DNA of 32,000 bases from Formosa sp. Hel1_33_131 (lineage in GTDB: Bacteria; Bacteroidota; Bacteroidia; Flavobacteriales; Flavobacteriaceae), in assembly GCF_001735745.1 (NCBI RefSeq), contig NZ_CP017260.1:1200001-1232000 (forward strand), in the 5' to 3' direction. The notes below the pieces were generated by a model. The model had not been told where the DNA came from and did not search any database. It saw only the letters and a program-made list of their open reading frames with translations. Below are positions 2,186 through 25,978 of this stretch, piece by piece. A program made the translations under genes and the position numbers. The number at the start of each line of letters is the position of its first letter. Position 1 is the stretch's first letter.

Positions 2186-4548
2186 TAACGTATGATCATT
2201 ATTTTTGAAACGTTCGTTTCAAGTGTATCAAAATCAGAAAAAAGCACTAAATATACTCCTGAAGCGACTGTATTATTTGCTAAATTTTTACCATTCCAAT
2301 AGGCGGTTCCGCCATCAATTTCTAAGTTGTAATTTTTATACCTTAAATTAACATTGGATTGTGCTTCGGCAACCAAATTACCTTCAATATCTGTTATTTT
2401 AATGTTGACATTATCACTTATATTTTTAATTTTAATTTTATCCTCTGCCATATTAAATCCAGGCCTTACAGGGTTCGGGTAGACATATACATCTTCGAGT
2501 GATTCTGCAGTACTTGAGCCGCCCGTAGTAAAAGCAACCAAGCCACGAGTGGTTCCAAAATAGACAATCCCATTTTCGGAATCTAACGCCATGGCATTTA
2601 CTCCATTTGACGGTAGTGGAGAGTTGTCTTTGGTGAAATGATGAATGGTTTTTTGCCCATCTGAAGACACGTAAAATACCCCCGCATCTGCTGTGGAAAT
2701 CCATTTATTGTTAGATCCATCCACGATGATATCTGAGATAAACTGTTGTGCTAATAGTTCTTGTGGAAGGCCGTCTTCAAGGATAATAATAGGTTCCGTT
2801 CTCACAACTTCTTCACTGAAAAAATTGGAAGTATTATACAGAACTCTGAGTCCTCTATAAGTGCCAATCCAGAGTACATTGTTTTTATCTAGAGCTAACG
2901 CTTTTACTGCGGCTGAAGGAAGGTTGGCAACATCTTTGTCGTTTATGTTTTTTAATAACATTCCATCTTCATTGAAACCAATCAAACCAGATTTATAACC
3001 TCCAATCCATTTGGTTCCATCAGATCCAATAGCAATATCGCTAAAGCCAAGTTCATTTCCTGAAGGGTCTGGTATGATTGGCGTAAAATCATAAGAAGTC
3101 CATTGATTCGTACTTGGATTAAGTTTTTTGAGAGGATTTTTTACTTTAGAGTTTAGTACCCACAAATTAGCTTCATTATCAAAAGAAGATCCTGAAATAC
3201 GAATGGTAATATAATTGGGGTTCGGTTCATATATTTGAGACTCTAACCCACTGTTTGCTGGATTTAAAAGTTCTATAGAGTCCTCCGATTTAATACTCAA
3301 CAAACCGCTATGAAAAGAGCTTATGAATACTTGACTTGGATCTAATGGATTTATAGCGATTTCATTTAGGTTGTAAACATCCGATTGAATTGTATTTTGA
3401 ATACTGTCATATCTAATATTTTCCCATTCAGTATTGTATAAACGGCTAACTCCTCTTTTCTGTAATGGGCTTGGGTTAAAGAATATTGTGTAGGCTCCAA
3501 AACTAACCCATAAATTATTATATCCGTATTCTAAAGAAAACACACTGTTTAAAAGTGGTCCTTGTGGGTGAATTTCTTCATATTCAGATGTTGATGTGGT
3601 CTTAGATCTTAGAACCCCAAAGTCAGTAGTTCCAATATAAATGACGTTATCAATTGTAAGAGCACTTGTAAAACTAGTTTGAAATTCAGGGTTGGTCGTA
3701 TAAGTGTCTATTATATTGAACCCAGTCGCATACTGATACAGTTTAGAGGGTGTTGTAACTAACAGGCTGTTATCTGACACTTTTAGGTCTGCAACAGATT
3801 GGGGATAAACAAATAAAGGATTCAAACTTGTTCCAACTATCTCAAAAATTCTATTACTAGAGTTCACTGTGTAAAGTTGACTGCCAAAGGCTGCCACGTT
3901 CGTGAAATTACCAGTAATCAGAGTTGTCCAAAATTGGAAATCTATTAAATTTGGATTGGATAAGCTCGCTTTTTTTATACCCATATTAGAACTACAGGCA
4001 GCATAAATTTCGTTATTAAAAATCGTGGTTTGATTGACTTTAACTTGACTCCCATTTGTACCAATATAATACGTATCCCCAAACTCTAAATCGGCTAAGT
4101 TATAAACTGAAATACCATAGTCTGTTGCAATATAAACAACCTCATCAATTTCATTAAAATGGTTAATTTTTTTTTGTGACGGTGGAATTGTTGTTTTGTT
4201 TATGATGTCAATAACTTTAAGCAATTCCTGATCGCTTTCTTTATAAACCTCAATTAAGCCGTTTTCATACCCAATTAATAATAGTTCGTATTGAGTGCTG
4301 TAATATATGGTTGAAATTAATTCCCCCGATAGCCCATTGATAGTTGTAATGGTACTAAGTTGATTACTAAGTGGGTCGTAGGAAAAAATTGCATTTTCAG
4401 AGGCTGCATAGAATTTAGTGTCTCCATAAACGACTTCTTTAATATCTAAATATGAGAAATGTCCAACCCAAGAAGTGTCATAGTTTTGACTCCAAGATGA
4501 TGGGACAAAAGCAAGAAGAAAAGTAATTATAAAAAAATATGTTTTCAC
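2185..4548 (-). CDS. PorZ-like two-propeller protein with T9SS C-terminal sorting domain
   Basis: 787 aa. Signal peptide (MKTYFFIITFLLAFVPSSWSQ), repeated beta-propeller-like segments along the whole length, and a C-terminal T9SS-type domain (VYVYPNPVRPG...GVYLVLFSD...SKIMIIR). The CDS itself is solid; the PorZ assignment is by architecture only. Confidence 0.6.
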   Translation of the reverse strand: MKTYFFIITFLLAFVPSSWSQNYDTSWVGHFSYLDIKEVVYGDTKFYAASENAIFSYDPLSNQLSTITTINGLSGELISTIYYSTQYELLLIGYENGLIEVYKESDQELLKVIDIINKTTIPPSQKKINHFNEIDEVVYIATDYGISVYNLADLEFGDTYYIGTNGSQVKVNQTTIFNNEIYAACSSNMGIKKASLSNPNLIDFQFWTTLITGNFTNVAAFGSQLYTVNSSNRIFEIVGTSLNPLFVYPQSVADLKVSDNSLLVTTPSKLYQYATGFNIIDTYTTNPEFQTSFTSALTIDNVIYIGTTDFGVLRSKTTSTSEYEEIHPQGPLLNSVFSLEYGYNNLWVSFGAYTIFFNPSPLQKRGVSRLYNTEWENIRYDSIQNTIQSDVYNLNEIAINPLDPSQVFISSFHSGLLSIKSEDSIELLNPANSGLESQIYEPNPNYITIRISGSSFDNEANLWVLNSKVKNPLKKLNPSTNQWTSYDFTPIIPDPSGNELGFSDIAIGSDGTKWIGGYKSGLIGFNEDGMLLKNINDKDVANLPSAAVKALALDKNNVLWIGTYRGLRVLYNTSNFFSEEVVRTEPIIILEDGLPQELLAQQFISDIIVDGSNNKWISTADAGVFYVSSDGQKTIHHFTKDNSPLPSNGVNAMALDSENGIVYFGTTRGLVAFTTGGSSTAESLEDVYVYPNPVRPGFNMAEDKIKIKNISDNVNIKITDIEGNLVAEAQSNVNLRYKNYNLEIDGGTAYWNGKNLANNTVASGVYLVLFSDFDTLETNVSKIMIIR

Positions 4549-4612
4549 GACTTGTTAATTAAACTCAAATATATTTATTACAAACGAGAAATGAACTCAT
4601 TATTGTACATAA

Positions 4613-4646
4613 ACAAAAAAAGCTTTCAAATCAATGAAAGCTTTTT
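4613..4646 (-). terminator. Rho-independent terminator downstream of gdhA
   Basis: Perfect 8-bp stem agctttca/tgaaagct (4621-4628 / 4635-4642). On the minus strand it is followed by a T-run (complement of caaaaaaaa at 4612-4620). Confidence 0.55.
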
Positions 4647-4666
4647 GAGCGTAGGTCTGGTAGTTA

Positions 4667-6013
4667 TTACACCACGCCTTGTGCGAGCATTGCGTCAGCT
4701 ACTTTTACAAAGCCTGCAATATTGGCGCCTTTAACATAATCTATATACCCTGTTTTTTCGTCTTTTCCATATTCGATACACGCATCATGAATATTAGACA
4801 TGATGTCTTTTAGCTTTTCATCCACTTCGGCTCTTGACCAGTTGTAGCGTAAAGAGTTTTGTGTCATTTCAAGTCCAGAAGTGGCGACACCCCCTGCATT
4901 GGATGCTTTTCCTGGTGCAAATAAAATCTTTGCTTCATGAAATTTAGTAATTGCAGCTTTTGTCGAAGGCATATTGGCTCCTTCACTCACACAAATACAA
5001 CCATTTTTCAACAACATGTCGGCATCATTTTCATTTAACTCATTTTGAGTTGCGCATGGCAACGCAATGTCACATTTAACTTCCCAAGGCGTTTTGTTGG
5101 CCACAAAGGTCGCTTTTGGATAGGTCTTAACATATTCACTTATACGTGCTCTTTTGACGTTTTTAAGTGTCATTACAAATGTAAGTTTGTCGGGATCAAT
5201 ACCCTCATGATCTACAATGTAACCAGAAGAATCTGATAACGTGATCACTTTTCCTCCTAAATGAATTGTTTTTTCTGCAGCGTATTGCGCTACATTTCCA
5301 GATCCAGAAATTACGACAGTTTTTCCTTTAAAACTGTCCCCTTTCGTCTGCAACATCTTATCTGCAAAATAGACGGTTCCATATCCGGTAGCTTCAGGAC
5401 GGATGAGCGAGCCTCCCCATGTCATTCCTTTTCCAGTAAGCACTCCGGTAAATTCGTTTCTAAGTTTTTTATACATTCCAAAAAGGAATCCTATTTCGCG
5501 TCCTCCTACTCCTATATCGCCTGCGGGGATATCGGTGTTAGAGCCAATATGACGAAACAATTCGCTCATAAAAGCATGGCAAAATCGCATGATTTCATTA
5601 TCACTTTTTCCTTTAGGGTCAAAATCGCTTCCCCCTTTTCCACCGCCCATTGGCAGGGTGGTTAAACTATTTTTAAAAACTTGCTCAAAAGCTAAGAATT
5701 TCAAAATGCTCATAGTAACCGATGGGTGAAATCGAAGTCCTCCTTTGTAAGGGCCGATCGCAGAATTCATTTGAACACGGTACCCACGATTTACCTGAAT
5801 TTCTCCTTTATCATCTACCCAGTTAACTCTAAAAGTAATAGCGCGTTCGGGTTCCACCATTCTTAAAAGAATGTTTTTGCCGTGATAAATATCGTGTTGA
5901 ACGATATAAGGCAGAACAGTTTCTGCAACCTCTTCTACGGCTTGAATAAATTCAGCTTCGTGGCCATTTCGTTCTTTAACTAAATCTAAAAAACCTTTAA
6001 TTATTTCTTCCAT
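4667..6013 (-). CDS. gdhA: NADP-specific glutamate dehydrogenase
   Basis: 448 aa with the classic Glu/Leu/Phe/Val dehydrogenase motif LPMGGGKGGSDFDPKGKSDNEIMRFC and a Rossmann GSGNVAQYAAEK. Confidence 0.95.
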   Translation of the reverse strand: MEEIIKGFLDLVKERNGHEAEFIQAVEEVAETVLPYIVQHDIYHGKNILLRMVEPERAITFRVNWVDDKGEIQVNRGYRVQMNSAIGPYKGGLRFHPSVTMSILKFLAFEQVFKNSLTTLPMGGGKGGSDFDPKGKSDNEIMRFCHAFMSELFRHIGSNTDIPAGDIGVGGREIGFLFGMYKKLRNEFTGVLTGKGMTWGGSLIRPEATGYGTVYFADKMLQTKGDSFKGKTVVISGSGNVAQYAAEKTIHLGGKVITLSDSSGYIVDHEGIDPDKLTFVMTLKNVKRARISEYVKTYPKATFVANKTPWEVKCDIALPCATQNELNENDADMLLKNGCICVSEGANMPSTKAAITKFHEAKILFAPGKASNAGGVATSGLEMTQNSLRYNWSRAEVDEKLKDIMSNIHDACIEYGKDEKTGYIDYVKGANIAGFVKVADAMLAQGVV

Positions 6014-6179
6014 ATCAAAATGTTTGGGGTGTTAAAATTTAAATATTATACGGTACAAATATATAATATCTTTAAAAATAATGGTCTATTTTTTTGTATA
6101 TGATAATTACGATGAGATAATTAAGATATGAATTCGGAATATGATGTTTTAATGGGGATTATTTAATGAAATATATAAT

Positions 6180-6284
6180 TCATTGCATAAAATGCTGATT
6201 TAAGGCCTGTTTCAAATCCTCCATTAAGTCCTCAGTATCCTCAATTCCAAGACTTAATCGGATTATCGAATCTACAACGCTTGT
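6180..6284 (-). pseudogene. Relic of the 3' end of a Cys/Met-metabolism PLP-dependent enzyme (MetB/MetC/MetY-like)
   Basis: Minus-strand translation ending at the stop at 6182-6180 reads TSVVDSIIRLSLGIEDTEDLMEDLKQALNQHFMQ*. This matches the conserved C-terminal (I/V)RLS(V/L)GIED.EDL..DL.QAL motif of that family. The frame is closed by a stop just upstream, so only about 34 codons survive. Confidence 0.45.
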
Positions 6285-6360
6285 TTATTTCGATCACCAA
6301 CGACGTTCATTTAATCATTTCCTTGGGCATCAAAACTTCGATATGGAAGTTTTATAAAAT

Positions 6361-15028: not shown

Positions 15029-15102
15029 GGTCCCATAGCTCAGTTGGTTAGAGCATCTGACTCATAATCAGAGGGTCCATGGTTCGAGCCCATGTGGGAC
15101 CA
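15029..15102 (+). tRNA. tRNA with anticodon CAT (elongator Met, or Ile2 if lysidine-modified)
   Basis: Hand-folded cloverleaf: acceptor ggtccca/tgggacc, D arm gctc-agttggtta-gagc, anticodon arm tctga-ctCATaa-tcaga, variable gggtc, T arm catgg-ttcgagc-ccatg, discriminator a. It lacks initiator features (no 3 GC pairs in the anticodon stem). The C4:G69 and C5:G68 pairs resemble tRNA-Ile2, so its identity is ambiguous. Confidence 0.9.
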
Positions 15103-15110
15103 CAAATAAA

Positions 15111-15134
15111 AGCAGCTCTAGGGCTGCTTTTTTA
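15111..15134 (+). terminator. Terminator-like hairpin after the tRNA, repeated in every array unit
   Basis: agcagc-tctagg-gctgct followed by tttttt. Copies at +391 steps (15502, 15893, 16284, 16675) and at 24154. Confidence 0.6.
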
Positions 15135-15150
15135 TATCAAAACCAGATCG

Positions 15151-15438
15151 ATGCCCTTTTGTTATATCATATACAGCCCTCAAATTGATTCGTATTACAC
15201 AGGATCGTGTGCTAATTTTGACCTCAGACTGAAAGCTCATAACTCCAAAAAATATGCTTCTTCTTACACCTCACAGTCTGACGACTGGGAACGCTTTTTG
15301 GTAATTCAAACAGAAACCAACAAACATGCTCTTCAAATCGAACGTAAAATTAAACAAATGAAAAGCCGTGTTTTCATTGAAAATTTGAAAAAATATCCTG
15401 AACTAGTAGATAAAATAAAAAAGCAAACGTGCATCTGA
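15151..15438 (+). CDS. GIY-YIG nuclease-family protein (YhbQ/URI-type), array copy 1
   Basis: 95 aa from MPFCYIIYSPQIDSYYTGSCANFDLRLKAHNS...HALQIERKIKQMKSR. The pattern (hydrophobic-Y strand, YTG, RLxxHN, ALxxExxxK) matches small GIY-YIG/URI domains. The 119-aa track version starts inside the tRNA T arm and is rejected. Confidence 0.75.
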   Translation: MPFCYIIYSPQIDSYYTGSCANFDLRLKAHNSKKYASSYTSQSDDWERFLVIQTETNKHALQIERKIKQMKSRVFIENLKKYPELVDKIKKQTCI

Positions 15439-15541
15439 CTCCCCCGATAACTATCGGGGCAGAGGGTCCATGGTTCGAGCCCATGTGGGACCACAAATAA
15501 AAGCAGCTCTAGGGCTGCTTTTTTATATCAAAACCAGATCG

Positions 15542-15829
15542 ATGCCCTTTTGTTATATCATATACAGCCCTCAAATTGATTCGTATTACACAGGATCGTG
15601 TGCTAATTTTGACCTCAGACTGAAAGCTCATAACTCCAAAAAATATGCTTCTTCTTACACCTCACAGTCTGACGACTGGGAACGCTTTTTGGTAATTCAA
15701 ACAGAAACCAACAAACATGCTCTTCAAATCGAACGTAAAATTAAACAAATGAAAAGCCGTGTTTTCATTGAAAATTTGAAAAAATATCCTGAACTAGTAG
15801 ATAAAATAAAAAAGCAAACGTGCATCTGA
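15542..15829 (+). CDS. GIY-YIG nuclease-family protein, array copy 2 (protein identical to copy 1)
   Basis: Same as copy 1. The nucleotide sequence appears identical by eye. Confidence 0.75.
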   Translation: MPFCYIIYSPQIDSYYTGSCANFDLRLKAHNSKKYASSYTSQSDDWERFLVIQTETNKHALQIERKIKQMKSRVFIENLKKYPELVDKIKKQTCI

Positions 15830-15932
15830 CTCCCCCGATAACTATCGGGGCAGAGGGTCCATGGTTCGAGCCCATGTGGGACCACAAATAAAAGCAGCTC
15901 TAGGGCTGCTTTTTTATATCAAAACCAGATCG

Positions 15933-16220
15933 ATGCCCTTTTGTTATATCATATACAGCCCTCAACTTGATTCGTATTACACAGGATCATGTGCTAATTT
16001 TGACCTCAGACTGAAAGCTCATAACTCCAAAAAATATGCTTCTTCTTACACCTCCAAGTCTGACGACTGGGAACGCTTTTTGGTAATTCAAACAGAAACC
16101 AACAAACATGCTCTTCAAATCGAACGTAAAATTAAACAAATGAAAAGCCGTGTTTTCATTGAAAATTTGAAAAAATATCCTGAACTAGTAGATAAAATAA
16201 AAAAGCAAACGTGCATCTGA
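15933..16220 (+). CDS. GIY-YIG nuclease-family protein, array copy 3
   Basis: Differs from copies 1-2 by I->L and Q->K plus one synonymous change. Confidence 0.75.
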   Translation: MPFCYIIYSPQLDSYYTGSCANFDLRLKAHNSKKYASSYTSKSDDWERFLVIQTETNKHALQIERKIKQMKSRVFIENLKKYPELVDKIKKQTCI

Positions 16221-16323
16221 CTCCCCCGATAACTATCGGGGCAGAGGGTCCTTGGTTCGAGCCCATGTGGGACCACAAATAAAAGCAGCTCTAGGGCTGC
16301 TTTTTTATATCAAAACCAGATCG

Positions 16324-16611
16324 ATGCCCTTTTGTTATATCATATACAGCCCTCAACTTGATTCGTATTACACAGGATCATGTGCTAACTTTGACTTAAG
16401 ACTGAAAGCTCATAACTCCAAAAAATACGTCGCTTCTTACACCTCCAAGTCTGACGACTGGAAACGCTTTTTGGTAATTCAAACAGAAACAAACAAACAT
16501 GCTCTTCGACTTGGAAGTAAAATTAAACAAATGAAAAGCCGAGTTTTTATTGAGAATTTGAAAAAATATCCAGAACTAGTAGATAAAATAAAAAAGCAAA
16601 CGAGCATCTGA
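16324..16611 (+). CDS. GIY-YIG nuclease-family protein, array copy 4 (probably inactive variant)
   Basis: Second subfamily (YVASYTSK, WKRF, HALRL). It reads RLGSK where every other copy has (I/L)ERK, so the conserved Glu of the AL..E..K motif is lost. Confidence 0.65.
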   Translation: MPFCYIIYSPQLDSYYTGSCANFDLRLKAHNSKKYVASYTSKSDDWKRFLVIQTETNKHALRLGSKIKQMKSRVFIENLKKYPELVDKIKKQTSI

Positions 16612-16714
16612 CTCCCCCGATAGCTATCGGGGCAGAGGGTCCATGGTTCGAGCCCATGTGGGACCACAAATAAAAGCAGCTCTAGGGCTGCTTTTTTATA
16701 TCAAAACCAGATCG

Positions 16715-17002
16715 ATGCCCTTTTGTTATATCATATACAGCCCTCAACTTGATTCGTATTACACAGGATCATGTGCTAATTTTGACCTCAGACTGAAAGC
16801 TCATAACTCCAAAAAATACGTCGCTTCTTACACCTCCAAGTCTGACGACTGGAAACGCTTTTTGGTAATTCAAACAGAAACAAACAAACATGCTCTTCGA
16901 CTCGAACGTAAAATTAAACAAATGAAAAGCCGAGTTTTTATTGAGAATTTGAAAAAATATCCTGAACTAGTAGATAAAATAAAAAAGCAAACGTGCATCT
17001 GA
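16715..17002 (+). CDS. GIY-YIG nuclease-family protein, array copy 5 (mosaic of both subfamilies)
   Basis: Subfamily-2 central part (YVAS, WKRF, RLERK) with subfamily-1 5' and 3' nucleotide markers (aattttgacctcaga, cctgaactag, acgtgcatc, gataactatc). Confidence 0.75.
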   Translation: MPFCYIIYSPQLDSYYTGSCANFDLRLKAHNSKKYVASYTSKSDDWKRFLVIQTETNKHALRLERKIKQMKSRVFIENLKKYPELVDKIKKQTCI

Positions 17003-17060
17003 CTCCCCCGATAACTATCGGGGCAGAGGGTCCTTGGTTCGAGCCCAAGTGGGACCACCC

Positions 17061-17093
17061 TGAAAACCCTTCTTTATTGAGGGGTTTTTTGTT
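17061..17093 (+). terminator. Terminator-like hairpin after the last tRNA 3'-half copy of the first array
   Basis: aaaaccc ... gggtttt stem followed by a T-run (tgaaaacccttctttattgaggggtttttt). Confidence 0.4.
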
Positions 17094-17286
17094 GCTCTCA
17101 CTCTCTAACCAGTCTCGAAAAGCTTCTAAAAGCCATCTCTTACTTAATTTCTAAACATCTCAAAGAACAGTCCAAATTTACTAAAAACTGACAGACTTTT
17201 GACAGACAATTCTGTTCTTTTCGCTTTTAGCCCTTTTCTCAACACGCTTTGTTCCAAAGCTACTGAGCTAATTGTTTCTTATGGGC

Positions 17287-18669
17287 TCAATCAACAACAC
17301 CTTCCTCAAAGCATTTTTTAAAGTATGCATTCATTTGAGTTTTTTCAAGCATATGGTCTGGTATTGAAACTAAACTTGTTTTAAACAGTTTGTCTAAATT
17401 ATGATGTTCTAGTATTACATCACTAAATAGTTTACGAACTCTATCTTCTAATAGGTTTTTTACAAGCAAAATATCCTTTTCAGTAGTTAAAATACAATCG
17501 TGTATGATTAATGCAAATTTATCATTTGGTATTTTTTTATACACCTCAACAAATATATCAGCTTCTGCACTTTGTCCTAGAAAACTCACTTTCTTGTAAC
17601 CCGAGTTCTTTTTAATTGCATTAACCCACATCATTACATTAGGGAATAACCTACTTAATTCTTTATTTGGTTGAGTTGGTTTATTTTCTGCATTAATTGC
17701 TGATAGAATACTCTTTTTAAGTTTCTCATAACTTAAACCTTTAAAGTATCCAGAGTTCTCTTGAACATATACATATATACCTCCACTTAAAAGAAGTTTA
17801 AGGCAATGGTTGTATTCCTTTTCAACGTGTTTGATGTTGTTCTTTTGAGCGTATTTTAACCATTCTAAAAAAATAATTGACGGTTGAGCTGAACACATAT
17901 CTACTTCCCAAATTAACTCATTAGACTTGGTTCTGATGCTTTCTCTAATTAGTTTTGGCATTGAGGCTATCACGTGATATATTCTACCAGATTTAGAAAT
18001 GGTAGGTGTATAATTTATGGAAGAGTTAAATAATACTTTTGGGTCTGTAACCTTGTTAAGTGCATAAAAGGAATTGTAAAACGCATCATATCGGTCAACT
18101 CTAAATTGGTTTACGGGTTCAGAGATGTCTACTTGACCATTTTTAGTTTCAACATAGATTGAACTTGGCAATATTCTTTCAACGTAATAAAACGGTTCTT
18201 CTACAACAAACAACTTTGATGTATTAACTAATATTTTCCTTAATACAGGATTTGAAAAAGTGTCTTCATAATTAAGTTCTTTTAAAGCATTTAATTTTGT
18301 GTTGAACTTTTTAGAATATACAATAGTATTTTTGACGCCTAACTTAATTGCTTTTGGGGTTAAAGCAAATGATTTTGAGAATTTACTTGTTGAATATTTA
18401 GGATTTTCTATTATGATGCCTAATCCAATCAAACATAATTGAATGTCTTTATATGTCCTATCGCCTATATATTTTTTTAATAATTGTGATTGTAGATTAA
18501 GGTGTTTACCATATGGTTCATTTAGTTTTATGTGTAACCTTATAATAGAAGATATAAGCCAATTACACCTGTCAAGCAATAACAGTTTTTTATCTCTTGT
18601 TTTTTGATTATTAAACTGTGTTGAGGTTATAAGTAAATCAGCAAAACCCTTTATGGTATATTGTTTCAT
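17287..18669 (-). CDS. Hypothetical protein with family-A (Pol I/T7-like) polymerase-like motifs
   Basis: 460 aa. By-eye motif series in the expected order: SGRIYHVIASMPKLIRES (cf. TGRLSS..PNLQNIP), EVDMCSAQPSIIFLEWL (cf. DYSQIELR motif A), KKSILSAINAE (cf. RRSAKAINFG motif B), FALIIHDCILT (cf. VHDE motif C). No search was run. Confidence 0.35.
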   Translation of the reverse strand: MKQYTIKGFADLLITSTQFNNQKTRDKKLLLLDRCNWLISSIIRLHIKLNEPYGKHLNLQSQLLKKYIGDRTYKDIQLCLIGLGIIIENPKYSTSKFSKSFALTPKAIKLGVKNTIVYSKKFNTKLNALKELNYEDTFSNPVLRKILVNTSKLFVVEEPFYYVERILPSSIYVETKNGQVDISEPVNQFRVDRYDAFYNSFYALNKVTDPKVLFNSSINYTPTISKSGRIYHVIASMPKLIRESIRTKSNELIWEVDMCSAQPSIIFLEWLKYAQKNNIKHVEKEYNHCLKLLLSGGIYVYVQENSGYFKGLSYEKLKKSILSAINAENKPTQPNKELSRLFPNVMMWVNAIKKNSGYKKVSFLGQSAEADIFVEVYKKIPNDKFALIIHDCILTTEKDILLVKNLLEDRVRKLFSDVILEHHNLDKLFKTSLVSIPDHMLEKTQMNAYFKKCFEEGVVD

Positions 18670-19035
18670 AAAACTGCACTACATATGATATGTTAGGACA
18701 CTAAATTAAAGTAAAATTATGAACTTTAAGTGGACTAGCATATTAGAAACTATTATTTCATTTGTATATGTGAGAATTCAGTATAAAATCAGTTAACTAA
18801 ACATTTAATTTTGAATTATATAACAGCAGTGGTTTTTTGAAGTCCTCAAAGACGCAAAAAAACATTTAGCTTAATAGATAGAAAAAAATTACCTAAACAA
18901 ACAGCTAGAAATAAAATTAGGTCTTTCTTAAATCTTTAATCTAATTGAAAAAACATTGATTAATCAAACTCTTTTTATGATGTAAATTGTTTAATTTTAA
19001 TTAGATTTGTTTGAACAAAATAAATTATGAATTAA

Positions 19036-19737
19036 ATGAAAAAACTACTCTTAGTCTCTACTTTACTTGTCTTTGGCTTTAGTTTTTCCCAGACACTTAC
19101 AGTTGTTGAAGGTAGCATTATTACCATTGACGCTAATAGTTCAGTAACAATAGACGGACTTCAGTTAGCGCCAAGCACTACTTATACTATTGCTGGTCCC
19201 AATGCATTTGATCATACATCAACCCCAATTGTTGTGGGGGATAACTCCAGCATTGAAAGAGTTTATGAGTTGTCTGAAGAATTATCTGATTATTCAGGAC
19301 TAATTTCTTTTCGTTATTTAGATTCTGAACTCAATGGTATTGACGAAGCAGAATTAGTTCTAGAAGTATTGGATGCCAACGATGTTTGGAACAATGTTGC
19401 TCCAAACATTGATGATACAAACAACATATTGAGTTATGATTTCACAGAACTTGTTGGATTTAAAAAAATTACTGCAAGTGCTTCATCAGCAACACTCACC
19501 ATAAAAACAGAAACACTAAATGATATCGTACGTGTTTACCCAAATCCAACAACCGATAAAATAATTATAGTTTCTAATTTTGCGCAACACTCAACATTGT
19601 TCAATACAGCAGGTCAAAAAATATTAGAATCAAATGCCTTAGAACTGGATGTTACAGACTTACCAACAGGTGTTTATTTACTGAATTTACAAAACACACA
19701 AAACCAAATTTCAACATTTAAAATCATAAAACAATAA
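19036..19737 (+). CDS. Secreted protein with T9SS C-terminal sorting domain
   Basis: Signal peptide MKKLLLVSTLLVFGFSFSQ and C-terminal VRVYPNPTTDKIII...GVYLLNLQN...FKIIKQ. Confidence 0.75.
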   Translation: MKKLLLVSTLLVFGFSFSQTLTVVEGSIITIDANSSVTIDGLQLAPSTTYTIAGPNAFDHTSTPIVVGDNSSIERVYELSEELSDYSGLISFRYLDSELNGIDEAELVLEVLDANDVWNNVAPNIDDTNNILSYDFTELVGFKKITASASSATLTIKTETLNDIVRVYPNPTTDKIIIVSNFAQHSTLFNTAGQKILESNALELDVTDLPTGVYLLNLQNTQNQISTFKIIKQ

Positions 19738-19738
19738 G

Positions 19739-20599
19739 ATGAAAAAAATCACATTAATAGCACTTATGCTGTTCACAGCATTGGGTTACGCACAAGTAGG
19801 TATCAACACAAATAACCCTGATGCCTCTTCGGCATTAGAGATTGAATCCACTACAGGTGGAATTTTAATTCCAAGACTCACAGAGACCCAGCGTGATGCG
19901 ATTAGCTCTCCAGCAACTGGATTAATGATATACCAAACAGATGGTACAGTAGGTTTTTACTATTACAATGGCAGTAGTTGGGCTAACGTTGGTTATACAG
20001 AAGCATTGGTTTCAGCCAATACAGATGTAGCAGCTAACACATTAAAAGTAGGATATACAGAAGCATTAGTTTCTGCAAATACAGCTGTAGCAGCAAATAC
20101 CGCTAAGGTTGGTGTTACAACACACGCCATTGGTGATAGCTTTGGTGGAGGTATTGTGTTTTTCGTGTATGATGGCGGACAACATGGCTTAATTGCTGCT
20201 ACTGCCGACCAAAGTGCAGGTATCCGTTGGTATGGAGGTTCATATACTTATACTCGTGCCAGAGCAGATGGTATTGGTGCTGGTTTAAAAAATACCGCCA
20301 TCATTATTGCTAACCAAGGCCCGGTTGACGGTAGTGCTTTTGCGGCAACTGTTTGCAACGAGTATTCAGTGACTGTAGATGGTGTTACTTATGGCGACTG
20401 GTATTTACCCTCTAAACACGAGTTAGACTTATTGTACATAGAAAGAGATACGGTTGGCGGTTTTACAACCAATTACTACTGGAGTTCTACGGAGGGCGAT
20501 AACATAGTCGTGTGGGTACAGGTTTTCGGCAATGGTGCTCAGAACAACGACGGTAAGGGCAGCACGGCCAATAGCGTGCGTGCAGTTCGAGCTTTTTAG
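19739..20599 (+). CDS. DUF1566/C-type-lectin-fold protein, candidate DGR target A
   Basis: Signal peptide, conserved N-domain (AQVGINTNNPDASSALE...[21 protein letters not shown]), two 20-aa repeats, and C-terminal WYLPSKHEL...YYWSSTE...WVQVFGNG...SVRAVRAF. Confidence 0.8.
   Translation: MKKITLIALMLFTALGYAQVGINTNNPDASSALEIESTTGGILIPRLTETQRDAISSPATGLMIYQTDGTVGFYYYNGSSWANVGYTEALVSANTDVAANTLKVGYTEALVSANTAVAANTAKVGVTTHAIGDSFGGGIVFFVYDGGQHGLIAATADQSAGIRWYGGSYTYTRARADGIGAGLKNTAIIIANQGPVDGSAFAATVCNEYSVTVDGVTYGDWYLPSKHELDLLYIERDTVGGFTTNYYWSSTEGDNIVVWVQVFGNGAQNNDGKGSTANSVRAVRAF
19991..20110 (+). repeat. Two tandem 60-bp (20-aa) repeats inside target A
   Basis: GYTEALVSANTDVAANTLKV / GYTEALVSANTAVAANTAKV, absent from paralog B. 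Confidence 0.9.
20474..20572 (+). other. DGR-type variable region (VR-A)
   Basis: 99 bp aligned codon-for-codon with 21833-21931, with 24 differing positions. 22 of the 24 fall at codon positions 1-2. Setting each differing position to A yields an inferred template with nine AAC and two AAT codons. Confidence 0.65.
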
Positions 20600-20630
20600 T
20601 TATTTAATTATTTATCAATTTAATTTAATG

Positions 20631-20642
20631 CCGCGTAAGCGG
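20631..20642 (+). promoter_or_regulatory. GC stem with GNRA-type loop downstream of VR-A (DGR hairpin-like)
   Basis: ccgc-GTAA-gcgg lies within a segment (20573-20667) that is nearly identical to the segment after VR-B. Confidence 0.45.
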
Positions 20643-20719
20643 ACGATTTTTATTTTTTAAAAATGGTAATAAAACAATTACTAAAAGATCAAACACACTA
20701 TAAAAAGCGAAACACACCA

Positions 20720-20896
20720 ATGAAACAATTATTCACATTTTTAGCGGCAGTATTATTAACTGCAACAACGTATGCCCAAGTGGAAAGCCCTTCACAGAAA
20801 GAGACACTATCTACAGTAGGTTTGAAGACTGGAGTTTACATCTTAAAAGTACAGGCAGAAAACATTGTTTTCACAAAAAAATTAGTCATAGAATAA
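20720..20896 (+). pseudogene. Deletion remnant: signal peptide fused directly to the end of a T9SS sorting domain
   Basis: [21 protein letters not shown], near-identical at the nucleotide level to the start of the 21116 gene, is followed after a short linker by GVYILKVQAENIVFTKKLVIE. There is no mature domain between them. Confidence 0.5.
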
Positions 20897-20905
20897 GCAT
20901 TCCAC

Positions 20906-21070
20906 ATGAAAAAAACAGAAAACACACCTAACGGTACCGATGATATCAGTAGAAAAGAGGCCATAAAGAAAATGGGAAAGTATGCTGCACTCACAGCGAT
21001 GGGAACATTTATGATTCTAAACCCTAAAAAGGCACAAGCTGCATCTGTACCTCCAAGTCCTGGTTGGTAA
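20906..21070 (+). CDS. Unannotated 54-aa ORF (Tat-signal-like / leader-like small protein)
   Basis: ATG at 20906, double stop taataa at 21068. MKKTENTPNGTDDISRKEAIKKMGKYAALTAMGTFMILNPKKAQAASVPPSPGW. Below the ORF-track size cutoff. Confidence 0.35.
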   Translation: MKKTENTPNGTDDISRKEAIKKMGKYAALTAMGTFMILNPKKAQAASVPPSPGW

Positions 21071-21115
21071 TAAAAGAAACTAAAAAAAGAAAAACAACTA
21101 TTAAAAAACACACCA

Positions 21116-21958
21116 ATGAAAAAATTATTCACATTTTTAGCAGCAGTATTATTAACTGCAACAACGTATGCCCAAGTGGGTATAGGCACAACAACTCCAG
21201 ACGCTTCGTCTGCTTTAGATATTACCTCTACCACAAAGGGGTTATTAATGCCAAGAATGACAGCAGCCCAGCGTGATGCGATTAGTCCAGCAGCCACAGG
21301 ATTAATGATATACCAAACAGATGGTACAGCAGGTTTTTACTATTACAATGGTAGTAGTTGGGAGGGGTATTATTCTAAAAATGAGGTAGACACATTGATT
21401 GCCAATCTTCAAACTCAGATTACTCAGATTACTAATAATGCAATCAGTGTAGGTGATTTTCTCCAAGGCGGCGTTGTTTTTCACCTATTTGAAGAAGGAG
21501 AAACAGGTTATGTTGCAGGACAAATCCACGGTTTGATTGCAGCAGTAGCAGACCAGAGTTCTGGTATACGATGGTATAATGGCAGTTATGATACTACAGG
21601 GGCAACAGGGACTGTTATAGGCACAGGAGCTACCAATACAACGACAATTATAAGTGAACAAGGCCCAACCGAAACATCTTATGCAGCAGGCCTGGCAAGG
21701 GCATATACTGGAGGAACAACACATACAGATTGGTTTTTACCCTCAAAAGATGAGTTAAACAAAATGTATTTAAATAAGGCAACTATAAACACTACAGCTG
21801 CAGCAAATAGTGGTAGTGATTTTTCTGCTAATAACTACTGGAGTTCTACGGAGTACGATAGCAATACCGCGTGGGTACAGTATTTCGGCAATGGTGGTCA
21901 GGGCTACTACGATAAGGTCAACACCTACGTTAGCGTGCGTGCAGTTCGAGCTTTTTAG
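21116..21958 (+). CDS. DUF1566/C-type-lectin-fold protein, candidate DGR target B
   Basis: Same architecture as target A but without the 20-aa repeats. C-terminal WFLPSKDEL...[41 protein letters not shown]. Confidence 0.8.
21833..21931 (+). other. DGR-type variable region (VR-B)
   Basis: See VR-A. Nucleotide similarity between the paralogs starts abruptly at the VR and continues past the stop codon. Confidence 0.65.
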
Positions 21959-21988
21959 TTATTTAATTATTTATCAATTTAATTAGTG

Positions 21989-22000
21989 CCGCGTAAGCGG
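21989..22000 (+). promoter_or_regulatory. GC stem with GNRA-type loop downstream of VR-B
   Basis: The same ccgcGTAAgcgg element as at 20631, located between the target stop and the Avd-like start. Confidence 0.45.
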
Positions 22001-22020
22001 ACGATTTTTATTTTTTAAAA

Positions 22021-22209
22021 ATGGCATTACACACAGCGCTTCCTGTATATAGGGATACATATAAATTGGTATTAGAAATTTTTGTAAGTACCAAAAATTT
22101 CCCTAAAGAATACAAGTATAGTTTGGGTAGAGATATGGAGCGTGATGTGCTGGTTTTAATGCGCTGTATATATCGTGCGCTGTTAAAACGTAACTTTAGT
22201 TTCCAGTAA
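22021..22209 (+). pseudogene. Truncated four-helix-bundle (Avd / 23S rRNA-IVS-like) protein
   Basis: MALHTALPVYRDTYKLVLEIFVSTKNFPKEYKYSLGRDMERDVLVLMRCIYRA matches the first half of Avd-type proteins. It then diverges and stops at 62 aa, about half the usual length. Confidence 0.55.
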
Positions 22210-22340
22210 CCTAACTTTTAGAACACAATATAACCCATTTCCAGTTATCTTTTTATACCTCCCGAGCAACCTTTGGAGCAACTCTAAAAACCAAAAAACC
22301 CGTAAATCATTGTTTATAAATGAGTTACGGGATTATTTTG

Positions 22341-22361
22341 TGGTACCTCCAGGAATCGAAC
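22341..22361 (-). other. Isolated 3'-terminal fragment of a different tRNA (T loop to discriminator); att-core remnant
   Basis: The reverse complement gttcgattcctggaggtacca reads as T loop, 3' T stem cctgg, acceptor aggtacc and discriminator a. The matching 5' T-stem strand is absent, so this is not a gene. It lies about 160 bp upstream of xis. Confidence 0.6.
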
Positions 22362-22523
22362 AGAAGTTTATTTATCAACATAATTCGTGCACTAATATTT
22401 TACAAACTTCTCTAACACCAATCAACTTAAATTAATCTAAATGCCGCATAAAAACTGGGCTTATTTTAAATTTGGGGATTGATTTTAAAAATAATTTTAT
22501 GTATACTTTTAAAAAAGAAAAGG

Positions 22524-22742
22524 ATGGATAAACGATTAATCACAATTGGAGAAGCTGCTACTTACTTAGGTATTTCCGTTTCACATTTATATAAAATGTG
22601 TTCTATGAGGAGTATCGATTTTTATAAGATTGGGAGGTCTAATAAGTTTTTAATTGCAGATTTAAATGAATTTATATCAAAAAATAAAATCAGCAAAAAG
22701 AAAGAATCAATGGTTAAGTTAAAACTTTCAATAAAAATATGA
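22524..22742 (+). CDS. Helix-turn-helix excisionase/AlpA-like DNA-binding protein
   Basis: 72 aa from MDKRLITIGEAATYLGISVSHLYKMC...FYKIGRSNKFLIADLNEFI. The stop overlaps the integrase start. Confidence 0.7.
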   Translation: MDKRLITIGEAATYLGISVSHLYKMCSMRSIDFYKIGRSNKFLIADLNEFISKNKISKKKESMVKLKLSIKI

Positions 22743-24013
22743 CAACAATAAAACAAGTATTTGATTATAGAACACCGAGAGTAAATGGAGAAATTCCTGT
22801 ACGATTGCGGGTGACACACAACCGAAAAACAACCCACATTTCATTGAATGCGTCTTTAACTGAAGTTCAAATAAAAAAGATAGAACAAGGTAAGGTCGAT
22901 AAAGAATTATCTCATTTCATAAAGGAATTGAATGATCTTACTTATAACGCTCAAAAAGTAGCTGCAAAATTAGAACCATTTTCAATAAGTGAATTGAAAC
23001 GTCAACTTTCAAATTCCAATACTTCAAAAAACAATAAAGATCATTTACTCGTAGATATCATTCAACTGAAAATAAAGAAACTTGAAGAAAATCAGCAATA
23101 TAAATCTAAGGGTCATTATAAGACACTTTTAAACATGATTACAACCTTTGATTCATCTCTACTATTAAAGGATGTAGATCAAGATTTTTTACACGATTTT
23201 GAACAATTTTACATAGACGGAAGAATCGAAAAAGATGGAGAAAGTCAATTAGAAAATTACTATAATACCTTAAGTATTTATTTTAGAAACCTTAAAGCGG
23301 TTATAAATTTAGGTGTAGATCACAAAATGTTAGATCATACCTACGAGTTTCCTTTTGGGAAGAACAAATACATCATTAAAACATATAATACAGAAAAAGA
23401 AATCTTTTCTGTGGATCAGGTTAATAGTTTAATGACTTTTAACTCTTTTGATACAAAATACCAAGAGAACGCACATGACCATTGGAAAGTCTGTTTTTTG
23501 TGCAACGGCAGTAATATGTCAGATGTTTTACAATTCAAATGGACCGATATAGATGATGATATTATTTCATTTGTGAGACAGAAAACTGAGAATAGAACAA
23601 AGACCGTCAGGAAACTCTCTATCCCAATTATAAAACCTTTAAGAGAATTAATAGACAGAATAGGAAATAGAGAAAGTGAATACATCTTTGGAGGATTTAG
23701 AACCCCACCCAAGAAGACAACAATACAAAATAAGGTTTCTAAAATGTGTAAAGGATATAACAAACACCTAAAAGTGATAGGAGTTAAAATTGGATTACCC
23801 ATTCCTTTGACCATATCCACCTCAAGACATAGTTACGGGAATTACCTTGCTAAAAATGGAGTTCCATTAGAAAGGATTGCAGAAATGATGGGTCACAAAG
23901 ATAAACAGCGGTTTACAACATATCATTACATCGGTAGTTTGGATAAAAAGATATTATTCGAAACGAAACAAACAAACATGCTCTTCGACTCGAACGTAAA
24001 ATTAAACAAATGA
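22739..24013 (+). CDS. Tyrosine-type site-specific integrase; the last ~19 codons, including the stop, are read from array-unit sequence
   Basis: 424 aa with the catalytic region ...SRHSYGNYLAKNGVPLERIAEMMGHKDKQRFTTYHYIG. From about 23957 the ORF runs into GIY-YIG unit sequence in another frame (…ETKQTNMLFDSNVKLNK*). Confidence 0.8.
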   Translation: MTTIKQVFDYRTPRVNGEIPVRLRVTHNRKTTHISLNASLTEVQIKKIEQGKVDKELSHFIKELNDLTYNAQKVAAKLEPFSISELKRQLSNSNTSKNNKDHLLVDIIQLKIKKLEENQQYKSKGHYKTLLNMITTFDSSLLLKDVDQDFLHDFEQFYIDGRIEKDGESQLENYYNTLSIYFRNLKAVINLGVDHKMLDHTYEFPFGKNKYIIKTYNTEKEIFSVDQVNSLMTFNSFDTKYQENAHDHWKVCFLCNGSNMSDVLQFKWTDIDDDIISFVRQKTENRTKTVRKLSIPIIKPLRELIDRIGNRESEYIFGGFRTPPKKTTIQNKVSKMCKGYNKHLKVIGVKIGLPIPLTISTSRHSYGNYLAKNGVPLERIAEMMGHKDKQRFTTYHYIGSLDKKILFETKQTNMLFDSNVKLNK

Positions 24014-24536
24014 AAAGCCGAGTTTTTATTGAGAATTTGAAAAAATATCCAGAACTAGTAGATAAAATAAAAAAGCAAACGAGCATCTGACTCCCCCGAT
24101 AGCTATCGGGGCAGAGGGTCCTTGGTTCGAGCCCAAGTGGGACCACAAATAAAAGCAGCTCTAGGGCTGCTTTTTTATATCAAAACCAGATCGATGCCCT
24201 TTTGTTATATCATATACAGCCCTCAACTTGATTCGTATTACACAGGATCATGTGCTAACTTTGACTTAAGACTGAAAGCTCATAACTCCAAAAAATACGT
24301 CGCTTCTTACACCTCCAAGTCTGACGACTGGAAACGCTTTTTGGTAATTCAAACAGAAACAAACAAACATGCTCTTCGACTCGAACGTAAAATTAAACAA
24401 ATGAAAAGCCGAGTTTTTATTGAGAATTTGAAAAAATATCCAGAACTAGTAGATAAAATAAAAAAGCAAACGAGCATCTGACTCCCCCGATAGCTATCGG
24501 GGCAGAGGGTCCTTGGTTCGAGCCCAAGTGGGACCA
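23957..24536 (+). repeat. Second part of the 391-bp array: 3' ~40% of one unit plus one complete unit and the terminal tRNA 3' half
   Basis: tRNA 3'-half copies at 24112-24145 and 24503-24536, both the cttgg/ccaag T-stem variant. The unit sequence belongs to subfamily 2. Confidence 0.9.
24194..24481 (+). CDS. GIY-YIG nuclease-family protein, array copy 6
   Basis: 95 aa, subfamily 2 (YVASYTSK, RLERK, C-terminal QTSI). Confidence 0.75.
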   Translation: MPFCYIIYSPQLDSYYTGSCANFDLRLKAHNSKKYVASYTSKSDDWKRFLVIQTETNKHALRLERKIKQMKSRVFIENLKKYPELVDKIKKQTSI

Positions 24537-24786
24537 CCCTGAAAACCCTTATTATCTTGTCATCAATAATAAAATGAATCCCGTAAGGAAAGACTTTTAA
24601 ATGTGCGATCCGTATTGTTTTATACCTGTACGGATACTGTAAAGGATTTTCTTTAATAGCGTCTATTTTATTCCAAAACTCATTATGAAATCTGTCAGCC
24701 AATTCTACTGATATTTTTTCATACTGCCCAATAGTGTTGTTGAAGTTTGCTAAAGAGGCTTCTTCAAACTTTATAGTGTGTTTCAT
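24349..24786 (-). CDS. RelE/ParE-family toxin whose native 3' end is replaced by array sequence
   Basis: Residues 1-84 (24786 down to about 24535), MKHTIKFEEASL...FPYGIHFIIDDKIIRVFRV, fit the Bacteroidota RelE/ParE pattern. The remaining ~60 aa (VPLGLEPRTLCPDSYRG...) are the antisense reading of the tRNA half and the GIY-YIG unit. Confidence 0.6.
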   Translation of the reverse strand: MKHTIKFEEASLANFNNTIGQYEKISVELADRFHNEFWNKIDAIKENPLQYPYRYKTIRIAHLKVFPYGIHFIIDDKIIRVFRVVPLGLEPRTLCPDSYRGSQMLVCFFILSTSSGYFFKFSIKTRLFICLILRSSRRACLFVSV

Positions 24787-25034
24787 TTACGAGTGGTTCG
24801 TTTCCGAAAATCTGATTCACTAATATAATTTAATTCACCCTTTTTATTCTTATCAAGCATCCCATCCATCATCATCTTATAGTCTTCAGTTAACTCAAAA
24901 CTATTGGCTTTTTCACGTAAAACATGCTCCATATAGTTTTTAAGTTTTCTCCCTTCTTTTTCGGCTTGAATTTTTAATATGGCCAATGTATCATTTTCTA
25001 AAGAGACTTCCTTTCGGTGTTTAGTTTGTAACAT
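24783..25034 (-). CDS. Antitoxin partner (ParD/RHH-like)
   Basis: 83 aa, 4-nt overlap with the toxin start. The pattern VSLENDTLAILKIQAEKEGRKLKNYMEHVLREKA is typical of Bacteroidota antitoxins. Confidence 0.6.
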   Translation of the reverse strand: MLQTKHRKEVSLENDTLAILKIQAEKEGRKLKNYMEHVLREKANSFELTEDYKMMMDGMLDKNKKGELNYISESDFRKRTTRK

Positions 25035-25220
25035 GTTCGTTTGTTTTACTGCTAATATACGTATAAATTACGGAATCAAAATTTGCTGCTTCAAAAAAAC
25101 TCCACCAAATATTGTGAATTTCTTGGCACTCATTTGGTGCTAATGCTTTTCCCAACACGGGTTGTTCCAAAGCTACTGAACTAATTATTTATTATATTTG
25201 AAGTATAAACCAATTTGATT

Positions 25221-25647: not shown

Positions 25648-25978
25648 AAAAGGCAGATTTTAAGCTTTCAAAAAATAAACCACCTATAAACACAAATATA
25701 GCATAAAGTTAGTGTATGTAAGTGATGAGTCCCCTCCCAACAGAGCCCCCACACCTAACTTGCTGTGTTGGGTGTATCCCCTCCATTTTGTTATACTGGA
25801 GTAAATTTTGATCCTTTAGTTTAATTTTTATAAGTTTGTAATGCATCAGGAACGTTAATAGCGTACCAACCGACTTCCTCGAAGCACGGTGGTTTAGAAT
25901 GCGGGAACTCTCCAAAAATTAACGAGTCATCCACATCCTTACTTGTTGCAATTTATGTCTAACTTAAATTGTAATACA

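Follow-up and report, generated by a model that had tools for sequence, protein, structure and literature searches.

What would set five copies of the 3' half of a tRNA gene, each accompanied by the same small nuclease gene, in a row behind that gene? The question is raised by a 32,000-nt stretch of Formosa sp. Hel1_33_131 (contig NZ_CP017260.1, positions 1,200,001-1,232,000, assembly GCF_001735745.1), which we analysed as a whole and call the window, and whose single tRNA gene, an intact tRNA-Met(CAT), heads such an array. The units of the array are insertions and are members of a Bacteroidota-wide family of minimal selfish cassettes that reside inside tRNA genes. The explanation we favour, and consider probable, is that each is a homing-type mobile nuclease cassette replacing the end of its target tRNA gene, and that arrays form through re-invasion and unequal recombination.

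The array behind the tRNA gene

ARAGORN and Rfam (72.6 bits) both identified the intact tRNA, and its G-C pair at positions 1-72, together with an anticodon stem lacking GGG/CCC, suggests on our own reading a non-initiator tRNA. Tandem Repeats Finder reported a period of 391 bp over 15069-17058 (5.1 copies, 97% matches). Five exact 391-bp units fill 15069-17023, in the same register by repeat search, and 1.4 more units lie at 23956-24537. Read 5' to 3', the array consists of the tRNA gene, the five units, the original 3' part of the tRNA and its native terminator, and tRNA positions 41-75 occur eight times in the window when the intact gene is included.

Each unit runs from tRNA positions 41-75 through a terminator-like hairpin (AAAAGCAGC-TCTAGG-GCTGCTTTTTT), a 16-nt leader, an open reading frame (ORF) and an 11-nt short arm to a palindrome. 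The T-run of the hairpin precedes the ATG by about 16 nt in every unit. The ORF, the only one in the unit, spans 288 nt with its stop codon and encodes 95 aa; its TGA falls inside the short arm (gcatctgactc), which repeats tRNA positions 25-35, the 5' strand of the anticodon stem. In every displaced copy the loop bases 36-40 (ATAAT) have been swapped for an 18-bp perfect palindrome, CCCCGATA(A/G)CTATCGGGG, which we named PAL. Each displaced copy is thus tRNA positions 25-75 with PAL as its loop, and as RNA or single-stranded DNA it folded as a single long composite hairpin, with the T arm after it. A preliminary description of this DNA had already recorded the tRNA with its five units, the eight copies of its 3' end, the 95-aa GIY-YIG ORF in each unit and the 16-nt spacing, all of which our analysis reproduces; its account of the unit was incomplete, PAL and the 11-nt repeat having been overlooked.

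The 95-aa product is a GIY-YIG superfamily protein by sequence (Pfam PF01541, E=2e-11), by its residues and by its predicted fold. In an alignment of the family, Y5, Y16, G18, H30, E64 and N78 do not vary, and R26 is nearly invariant; we take these to correspond to Y6, Y17, G19, R27, H31, E75 and N90 of I-TevI, the GIY-YIG catalytic set. The AlphaFold model (predicted local distance difference test 94, predicted template modelling score 0.83) consists of a GIY-YIG core and two C-terminal helices, which bear the most conserved motif of the family, KxMKSxx[FY]IENLKKYPEL. The nearest solved structures were At-HIGLE, the UPF0213 protein BH0048 and Slx1, with the I-TevI catalytic domain and UvrC ranking after them; Foldseek matched 7wme, 7cq3 and 4xlg, and a profile search matched 1zg2 (E=0.0065). 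These neighbours place the protein in the structure-specific nuclease lineage (SLX1/UPF0213). Searches of PADLOC, PHROGs, GenBank phages, PLSDB plasmids and IMG/VR gave no match to the nuclease; a phage or plasmid vehicle was accordingly set aside because GenBank phages, PLSDB and IMG/VR hold no relative, and a defence system because PADLOC gave no match. In Rfam, consulted for the hairpin, PAL and the pseudo-tRNA, the intact tRNA was the sole hit and the other matches had E>=0.08, below the gathering score, which disposes of a known RNA motif.

Comparison of the units shows both constraint and exchange. Relative to unit 1, unit 2 has no differences, unit 3 has 4, unit 4 has 25, unit 5 has 15 and unit 6, which is borne on a neighbouring island, has 23. 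The rise in divergence with distance from the tRNA, as first described, is rough and non-monotonic because unit 5 is a mosaic of two types; the mosaic also means that units recombine with one another. Units 1 and 6 are separated by 11 synonymous and 9 non-synonymous changes (about 10 and 8 in the earlier count), giving a ratio of non-synonymous to synonymous divergence (dN/dS) of 0.18 with dS at 0.23, and the ratio was 0.12-0.24 across all informative unit comparisons. Differences between units number 3 in 103 non-coding positions vs 23 in the 288-nt ORF, and therefore hairpin, leader and PAL are either constrained or homogenised. Unit 4 has lost the invariant catalytic Glu (E64G with R65S, turning ERK into GSK) and the T stem of its 3' half is a mismatched hybrid (CCTTGG/CCCATG), so that this unit is probably inactive. 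In a unit tree of this population, units 1-3 are sister to two units of another genome (L087) and units 4-6 fall outside; the one array therefore holds at least two lineages (units 1-3 and units 4-6; dS ~0.23). The identity of units 1 and 2 suggests that this pair arose by local duplication.

Insertion polymorphism and a family across Bacteroidota

We scanned metagenome contigs for the 33-nt promoter of the tRNA together with the tRNA start and recovered 45 contigs of close relatives. About 37 of them have an empty site, in which the terminator cctgaaaacccttcttaattgaggggtttttt directly follows the tRNA, and 7 have one or two units. Among close relatives, then, the cassette is present or absent at one precise site of a conserved gene, as a homing gene is. 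Joining 15029-15068 of the window to 17024-17123 yields a sequence identical at 140/140 positions to the empty contig L092. Copy number varies at syntenic loci, with one unit in L002 and one unit plus a truncated second in L001. One contig (L100) carries a decayed cassette ~400-430 nt downstream of the tRNA start, in which the ORF is frameshifted and a deletion has removed PAL and the displaced 3' half, up to the native terminator.

The T arm distinguishes the resident tRNA part from the inserted one. The variant CCTTGG/CCAAG occurs in 30 of the 37 empty sites, and the same variant, with the flank of those sites, stands at 17024-17090, the distal end of the window array; the rebuilt tRNA of the window has the arm CCATGG and its displaced original CCTTGG. 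In three further contigs (L002, L089 and L097) the rebuilt tRNA has CCGAGG/CCTCG and the displaced half CCATGG/CCATG, and empty sites with the arm and flank of the L002-type displaced half exist as well (L094, L103). A non-native arm was found at 9/9 occupied sites with an intact ORF vs 7/37 empty sites. Since the T-stem changes are compensatory, both arm versions were once working tRNA parts, and the spare part that came with the cassette was therefore drawn from a different lineage. The preliminary description had proposed a tRNA-targeting cassette that brings its own replacement 3' half, with empty sites and variable copy number as its expected traces; both traces are present, and the displaced native half, the exact match to L092 and the compensatory T stem of L002 support the proposal further.

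As a separate observation, two contigs contain one more tRNA-Met 3' half, in degenerate form; counted downstream from the tRNA start, it stands at ~1660-1740 nt in L113 and ~2060-2140 nt in L087. It lies ~1.2 kb past the unit or units, is preceded by cttgactacttataatctag and begins at tRNA position 41, and it looks like the remnant of a different type of insertion at the same spot.

The cassette extends far beyond this population. A profile search of 1.84 billion representatives returned 597 cluster representatives at E<=1e-10, all about 95-130 aa long. Scanning one genome per species yielded at least 396 loci, of which we examined the best 80 together with the syntenic L001 (81 loci), nearly all from Bacteroidota. 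An intact, co-oriented tRNA lies within 250 nt in 66 of these 81 (upstream in 50, downstream in 16), PAL adjoins the ORF in 73, and 19 have two or more nuclease ORF matches. The targets are tRNAs for Met, four Leu isoacceptors, Asn, Phe, Thr and Val. PAL always sits in the D loop, anticodon loop, variable region or T loop, where it has replaced 3-5 nt, and the arm stem is retained on both sides of it, with the long tRNA part on one side and ~10 nt on the side of the ORF. Two layouts occur: that of the window (tRNA, hairpin, ORF, short arm, PAL, old 3' part), and its mirror image (promoter, old 5' part, PAL, short arm, ORF, intact tRNA), in which a new 5' part is supplied and, in some loci, the promoter is duplicated too. 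This two-sided symmetry is more in keeping with break repair than with the action of an integrase. In a neighbour-joining tree, 91 proteins cluster according to tRNA identity (Met; Phe; Asn with Thr; Leu with Val), and loop and side vary inside these groups.

Tandem arrays combining the nuclease gene with tRNA sequence were found in the window and at L049, L062, L065, L009, L026 and L017, the largest having at least 8 nuclease-gene units (L049) and at least 18 PAL-bearing units when ORF-less minis are included (L009). In Bacteroidetes bacterium UKL13-3 (L049, complete genome CP012155) the two kinds flank one tRNA-Asn: 11 ORF-less 80-bp units upstream (1553-2432 of the locus), each consisting of a 5' tRNA part whose D loop carries PAL, and 8 ORF units of 410 bp downstream (2508-5790), where PAL occupies the T loop. 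Divergence in both arrays is greatest in the units that lie furthest from the intact tRNA. L009, on a 3-Mb contig, has a tRNA-Met followed by at least 18 PAL units (2534-6285), a mixture of ORF-less minis of about 140 bp and three ORF units that extends past the end of the fetched locus. At five other loci (L008, L032, L034, L036 and L064) copies of tRNA-Met 1-35 with PAL lie upstream of the intact tRNA. Three of these (L008, L036, L064) also have a nuclease unit and the displaced 41-75 half downstream (only 41-62 in L064), and the fragment on that side is degenerate or otherwise arranged in L032 and L034. Such copies on both flanks mean that the same gene has been rebuilt from both sides. Two loci carry a near-complete pseudo-tRNA-Leu with PAL in both the D and the T loop and no intervening ORF (L052, 3275-3370; L033, 3300-3395), indicating that PAL can enter a loop on its own.

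Over the family, the PAL consensus is YCCCGATAGCTATCGGGR. Its nine arm pairs are complementary in 116-125 of 125 distinct copies, and three pairs have undergone compensatory double changes: TA/CG, CG/TA/GC and TA/AT (111 vs 11). The two central bases are asymmetric in 29 of the 125 copies, and the next pair outward is non-complementary. The pattern would fit a hairpin or cruciform, or else a symmetric dimer site. An exact PAL 16-mer also occurs in 51 IMG/VR stretches (L127-L177), with at most 5 in any one contig; the two control palindromes, matched in composition, occur 9 times and once, making PAL 6-50 times commoner. In 8/51 of these viral stretches, vs 2.3% of random controls, PAL lies within the loop of a larger hairpin, for instance that of a terminator. 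Copies in terminator loops include those of L150, L176 and L158, copies nested in PAL those of L168 and L171, and short tandem repeats such as aattgataattgataat border several viral copies.

How the cassettes may move

The logic of an endonuclease ORF that travels with a replacement gene end is already known. In fungal mitochondria, elements termed mORFs (Allomyces atp6; Glomus atp6, atp9, cox2 and nad3) consist of a free-standing LAGLIDADG or GIY-YIG ORF and a foreign version of the 3' end of the gene in which they are inserted; the hybrid gene is functional, the native 3' end persists as a downstream fragment, and the native end resembles that of cassette-free relatives while the inserted end is divergent (PMC3630166). 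The cassette of the window shares with them an endonuclease ORF, a duplicated gene end, a displaced native end and a foreign inserted end. It differs from mORFs in residing in a bacterial chromosome, in splitting a tRNA gene at a loop, in having a 95-aa enzyme with no extra domain, in the PAL that marks the displaced fragment, in replacing either the 5' or the 3' part, and in its common arrays and ORF-less minis. A second precedent is SegB, a free-standing GIY-YIG homing endonuclease of the T4/T6 phage tRNA cluster that cuts within tRNA genes, has the reported motif RAWTSGAAC and was shown experimentally to generate, through its catalytic activity and phage recombination proteins, tandem arrays of segB and tRNA (PMC13096335). 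Both SegB and the cassette place a GIY-YIG gene beside a tRNA and form tandem arrays of nuclease gene and tRNA sequence. SegB, however, is phage-borne and larger, with a DNA-binding part; its arrays contain whole tRNAs and are unstable without selection, and it lacks the palindrome and the splitting and rebuilding of the tRNA that the cassette has. The SegB motif, by our own reading, appears to resemble T-loop sequence.

Other systems share single traits. Islands that target tRNA genes insert at the anticodon or T-loop region, bring a replacement 3' part of the tRNA, leave a displaced fragment and can stack. They encode their own integrase and measure many kb, whereas the cassette has no integrase, is 0.4 kb long and is found also in the D loop and upstream of the tRNA with a 5' replacement. 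Integrons hold diverse genes ending in attC in an array adjacent to IntI and attI; the window array has no adjacent integrase and all of its cassettes contain the same gene. In collaborative homing at cyanophage psbA, a separate ORF-less intron sits within the target of the nuclease and is carried along with its gene. PAL could act as that insert, but it is unspliced, and function is kept by partial gene duplication. UPF0213, SLX1 and HIGLE proteins, the best matches in both sequence and structure, have the single catalytic domain in common with the cassette nuclease, which is set apart by its own C-terminal motif (K-x-M-K-S-x-x-[FY]-I-E-N-L-K-K-Y-P-E-L) and its tie to tRNA genes and PAL. Like REP/RAYT, mitochondrial GC clusters and double-hairpin elements, PAL is short, symmetric, dispersed, sometimes nested and linked to a nuclease; unlike them it is an 18-bp perfect palindrome at tRNA loops, and it is linked to a GIY-YIG enzyme instead of an HUH transposase. 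Full-text literature, searched with the palindrome sequence included and with most subscription journals outside its coverage, contained no description of bacterial tRNA-embedded GIY-YIG cassettes, of PAL or of the arrays, and an earlier description is possible. What appears new is the bacterial chromosomal setting, the tRNA-loop targets, the minimal single-domain enzyme, the conserved palindrome, the two-sided insertion, and the arrays with ORF-less minis.

The mitochondrial mORFs and SegB make homing the most economical reading of the cassette. The nuclease would break the loop of the tRNA gene in a cassette-free copy, and recombinational repair from cassette-bearing DNA would copy in the spare part, the gene and PAL. 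The resident part and the spare part would then constitute an intact tRNA, with the remainder pushed aside and PAL in its loop. In the displaced copy PAL has destroyed the loop, and the rebuilt tRNA is intact; PAL may thus serve to remove the loop from the displaced fragment, like the intron in collaborative homing. The unit leaves no space for a promoter, and tRNA and ORF always point the same way, which makes it probable that the nuclease gene is expressed from the tRNA promoter by read-through of a weak terminator. By analogy with SegB, arrays would grow through fresh invasions and nuclease-stimulated unequal recombination, and they would arise in part because the rebuilt tRNA can still be cut. 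Two variants of this scheme were dropped. Ends-in integration of a circle cut at PAL was rejected on paper, since gap repair would erase PAL. Immunity through a resistant spare part in the T stem fits the population of the window, where occupied sites have non-native arms and 30/37 empty sites the native one, but is not general, the arms being identical in 11/14 other Met loci.

Several points weigh against homing. Cleavage of the tRNA gene by the nuclease is a step that we infer. The enzyme lacks the separate DNA-binding domain of characterised GIY-YIG homing enzymes such as I-TevI and Seg, and in structure it comes closest to structure-specific nucleases rather than to homing enzymes. The presumed target survives in the rebuilt tRNA, with intact and displaced T arms the same in those 11/14 Met loci, which under this model would leave the host without immunity to its own nuclease. 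The ORF has no evident promoter and sits behind a terminator-like hairpin. The main weakness concerns PAL: it is near-invariant across protein clades that are only ~45% identical, and the viral contigs that bear it have no relative of the nuclease and almost no tRNA nearby. Conservation of this kind, together with nuclease-free phage copies, sits poorly with a simple blocker and keeps a PAL-centred mechanism alive. In the alignment no protein column clearly co-varies with PAL variants; co-evolution of protein and palindrome was therefore discarded, as no column convincingly tracks the switch from GATAGCTATC to GAAAGCTTTC (best p=6e-4, uncorrected).

A PAL-centred mechanism would make the palindrome itself the mobile or recognised module, with the SLX1-like nuclease acting on the PAL hairpin or cruciform or on the PAL-extended tRNA arm. 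Insertion would be structure-directed, into the tips of stem-loops; tRNA arms would be one class of target, and the tRNA duplications the survivors of hits on an essential gene. The symmetry of PAL, maintained by the compensatory double changes at three arm pairs with the two central bases free as in a loop, speaks for it, and so do the arm stem that is always retained on both sides to form one long composite hairpin, the pseudo-tRNAs of L052 and L033, and the nearest structures of the protein, which are branched-DNA nucleases. Also in its favour, PAL is 6-50 times more frequent in viral contigs than the controls and, where no nuclease gene is present, is sometimes placed in the loop of a terminator or inside another PAL. 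Against it, an obvious hairpin surrounds only 8 of the 51 viral copies, and PAL hardly occurs outside tRNA-derived sequence in the window and the 6-kb loci. Nor does insertion of an 18-bp duplex by a GIY-YIG nuclease have a known mechanism; the foreign spare parts go unexplained by PAL alone, and the absent covariation counts here too. We regard this explanation as doubtful. A related and tentative proposal, which we think rather improbable when all its parts are taken jointly, is that PAL and the mini-nuclease form an unrecognised mobile system that reads DNA shape, the tips of stem-loops, and not sequence. The palindrome would then invade hairpin loops of tRNA genes, terminators and phage genomes, and the nuclease gene would persist beside PAL in those tRNA genes that the cell must rebuild.

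The remaining alternatives dispense with homing in other ways. Integron-like or satellite cassettes could be inserted at tRNA loops by a tyrosine recombinase encoded elsewhere, with PAL or the tRNA arm as the attachment site. Anticodon and T loops are reportedly the classical crossover positions of tRNA-targeting integrases, an array that is youngest next to the tRNA resembles an integron, the island in the window has 1.4 units right after its integrase gene, and the remnants in L113 and L087 appear to mark another insertion at tRNA position 41. Yet an integrase-like ORF lies within 3 kb on either side in only 1/81 loci and the island uses a different, 50-bp attachment site (attB of L092), which makes an integrase in trans unlikely. 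Replacing the loop with PAL would moreover remove the overlap region that an integrase needs, cassettes lie on both sides of the tRNA and also in the D loop, and the only conserved cassette gene is the nuclease, under purifying selection. A resident host gene linked to the tRNA, perhaps for tRNA or DNA housekeeping, that was amplified in place by unequal crossover would account for the identity of units 1 and 2, for identical units in many other arrays and for the mosaic unit 5, since units do recombine. As the sole explanation it conflicts with the empty sites, which make up ~37 of the 44 sites in close relatives, and with the two lineages in the array (dS ~0.23), of which units 1-3 group with units of another genome; the displaced half with its native arm and flank, the recurrence of the design at six tRNA identities and the decayed copies also oppose it, and we consider it very improbable. 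That the array is a collapsed or over-expanded repeat of the assembly is scarcely credible: the exact number of copies identical to units 1 and 2 is not verifiable from sequence alone, but units 3, 4 and 5 differ from one another and from units 1 and 2, anchoring the order, similar arrays occur in a complete genome (CP012155) and a 3-Mb contig, and independent metagenome contigs have 1-2 units at the same site.

A separate island, and what the cassettes mean

The 1.4 distal units had been taken for the far end of an array split by a 6.9-kb insertion. They are indeed there, but the array is uninterrupted and ends at 17058. When the window is aligned to L002 and L092, the native flank is seen to continue past the array and to resume at 25196, and what lies between is bounded by 50-bp imperfect repeats, attL and attR (Table). 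The L092 attB consists of the left part of the first repeat and the right part of the second. This attB/attL/attR relation identifies a site-specifically integrated island, separate from the array, and the split-array reading is ruled out. The partial unit on the island begins just past the catalytic region of the integrase, within the last ~20 codons of the called ORF, which enters it by ~57 nt before its stop at 24013. With its captured array end, the island illustrates one way in which units could travel between genomes.

Table. Coordinates of the array, its flank and the neighbouring island in the window
Feature	Position	Strand	Remarks
Intact tRNA(CAT)	15029-15103	+	ARAGORN type Met; positions 1-40 resident, 41-75 = first 35 nt of unit 1
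Unit 1	15069-15459	+	391 bp; tRNA 41-75 15069-15103; hairpin 15108-15131; ORF 15151-15438
Unit 1, distal parts	15431-15459	+	short arm gcatctgactc 15431-15441; PAL 15442-15459
Unit 2	15460-15850	+	identical to unit 1; ORF 15542-15829; PAL 15833-15850
Unit 3	15851-16241	+	4 differences vs unit 1; ORF 15933-16220; PAL 16224-16241
Unit 4	16242-16632	+	second lineage; ORF 16324-16611; PAL 16615-16632
Unit 5	16633-17023	+	mosaic of both lineages; ORF 16715-17002; PAL 17006-17023
Resident tRNA 41-75, displaced	17024-17058	+	T arm CCTTGG/CCAAG, as in most empty sites
Native downstream flank	17059-17282	+	native tRNA terminator 17067-17090; last 50 nt (17233-17282) = island attL
Integrative island	17283-25195		7.9 kb; not part of the array
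460-aa gene	17287-18669	-	no family match; island
Paralogous secreted proteins	19739-20599, 21116-21958		Lcl C-terminal domain; island
HTH_17 protein	22479-22742		island
Tyrosine integrase	22739-24013		island
Island-borne copy of array end	23957-24550	+	partial unit 23957-24111, begins mid-ORF
Unit 6, full	24112-24502	+	island; ORF 24194-24481
Island tRNA 41-75	24503-24537	+	followed by 13 nt of native terminator flank, 24538-24550
Two small overlapping genes	24560-25034	-	83 aa and about 75 aa; toxin-antitoxin-like arrangement
Island attR	25146-25195		50-bp imperfect repeat of attL

An exact-match look-up gave no other copy of the island integrase. The two genes for secreted proteins contain DNA repeats that are 74-81% identical, with a near-identical signal-peptide region, and a 60-nt tandem repeat (19985-20104) lies inside the first; by eye, the end of a 233-aa ORF beside them resembles a type IX secretion sorting tail. 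The 83-aa member of the small gene pair has a weak match to Omega_Repress (E=0.002), and neither member matched PADLOC or PHROG. Elsewhere in the window, a SAM-I/IV riboswitch aptamer lies at 25838-25929 on the plus strand (49.9 bits against a gathering score of 41.1).

The cassettes are mobile elements of ~0.4 kb with one gene that occupy essential tRNA genes across a phylum, and they follow a logic documented earlier mainly for protein genes of fungal mitochondria. They account for many of the "partial tRNA" fragments and tandem repeats beside Bacteroidota tRNA genes, which confuse annotation and assembly. Their arrays are a chromosomal counterpart of the SegB-driven amplification recently described in phages. 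A 95-aa nuclease and an 18-bp palindrome could also yield a minimal site- or structure-specific nuclease. For the organisms that carry them, the compensatory T-stem variants indicate that halves of tRNAs have been swapped between lineages, a route for the horizontal evolution of tRNA genes.

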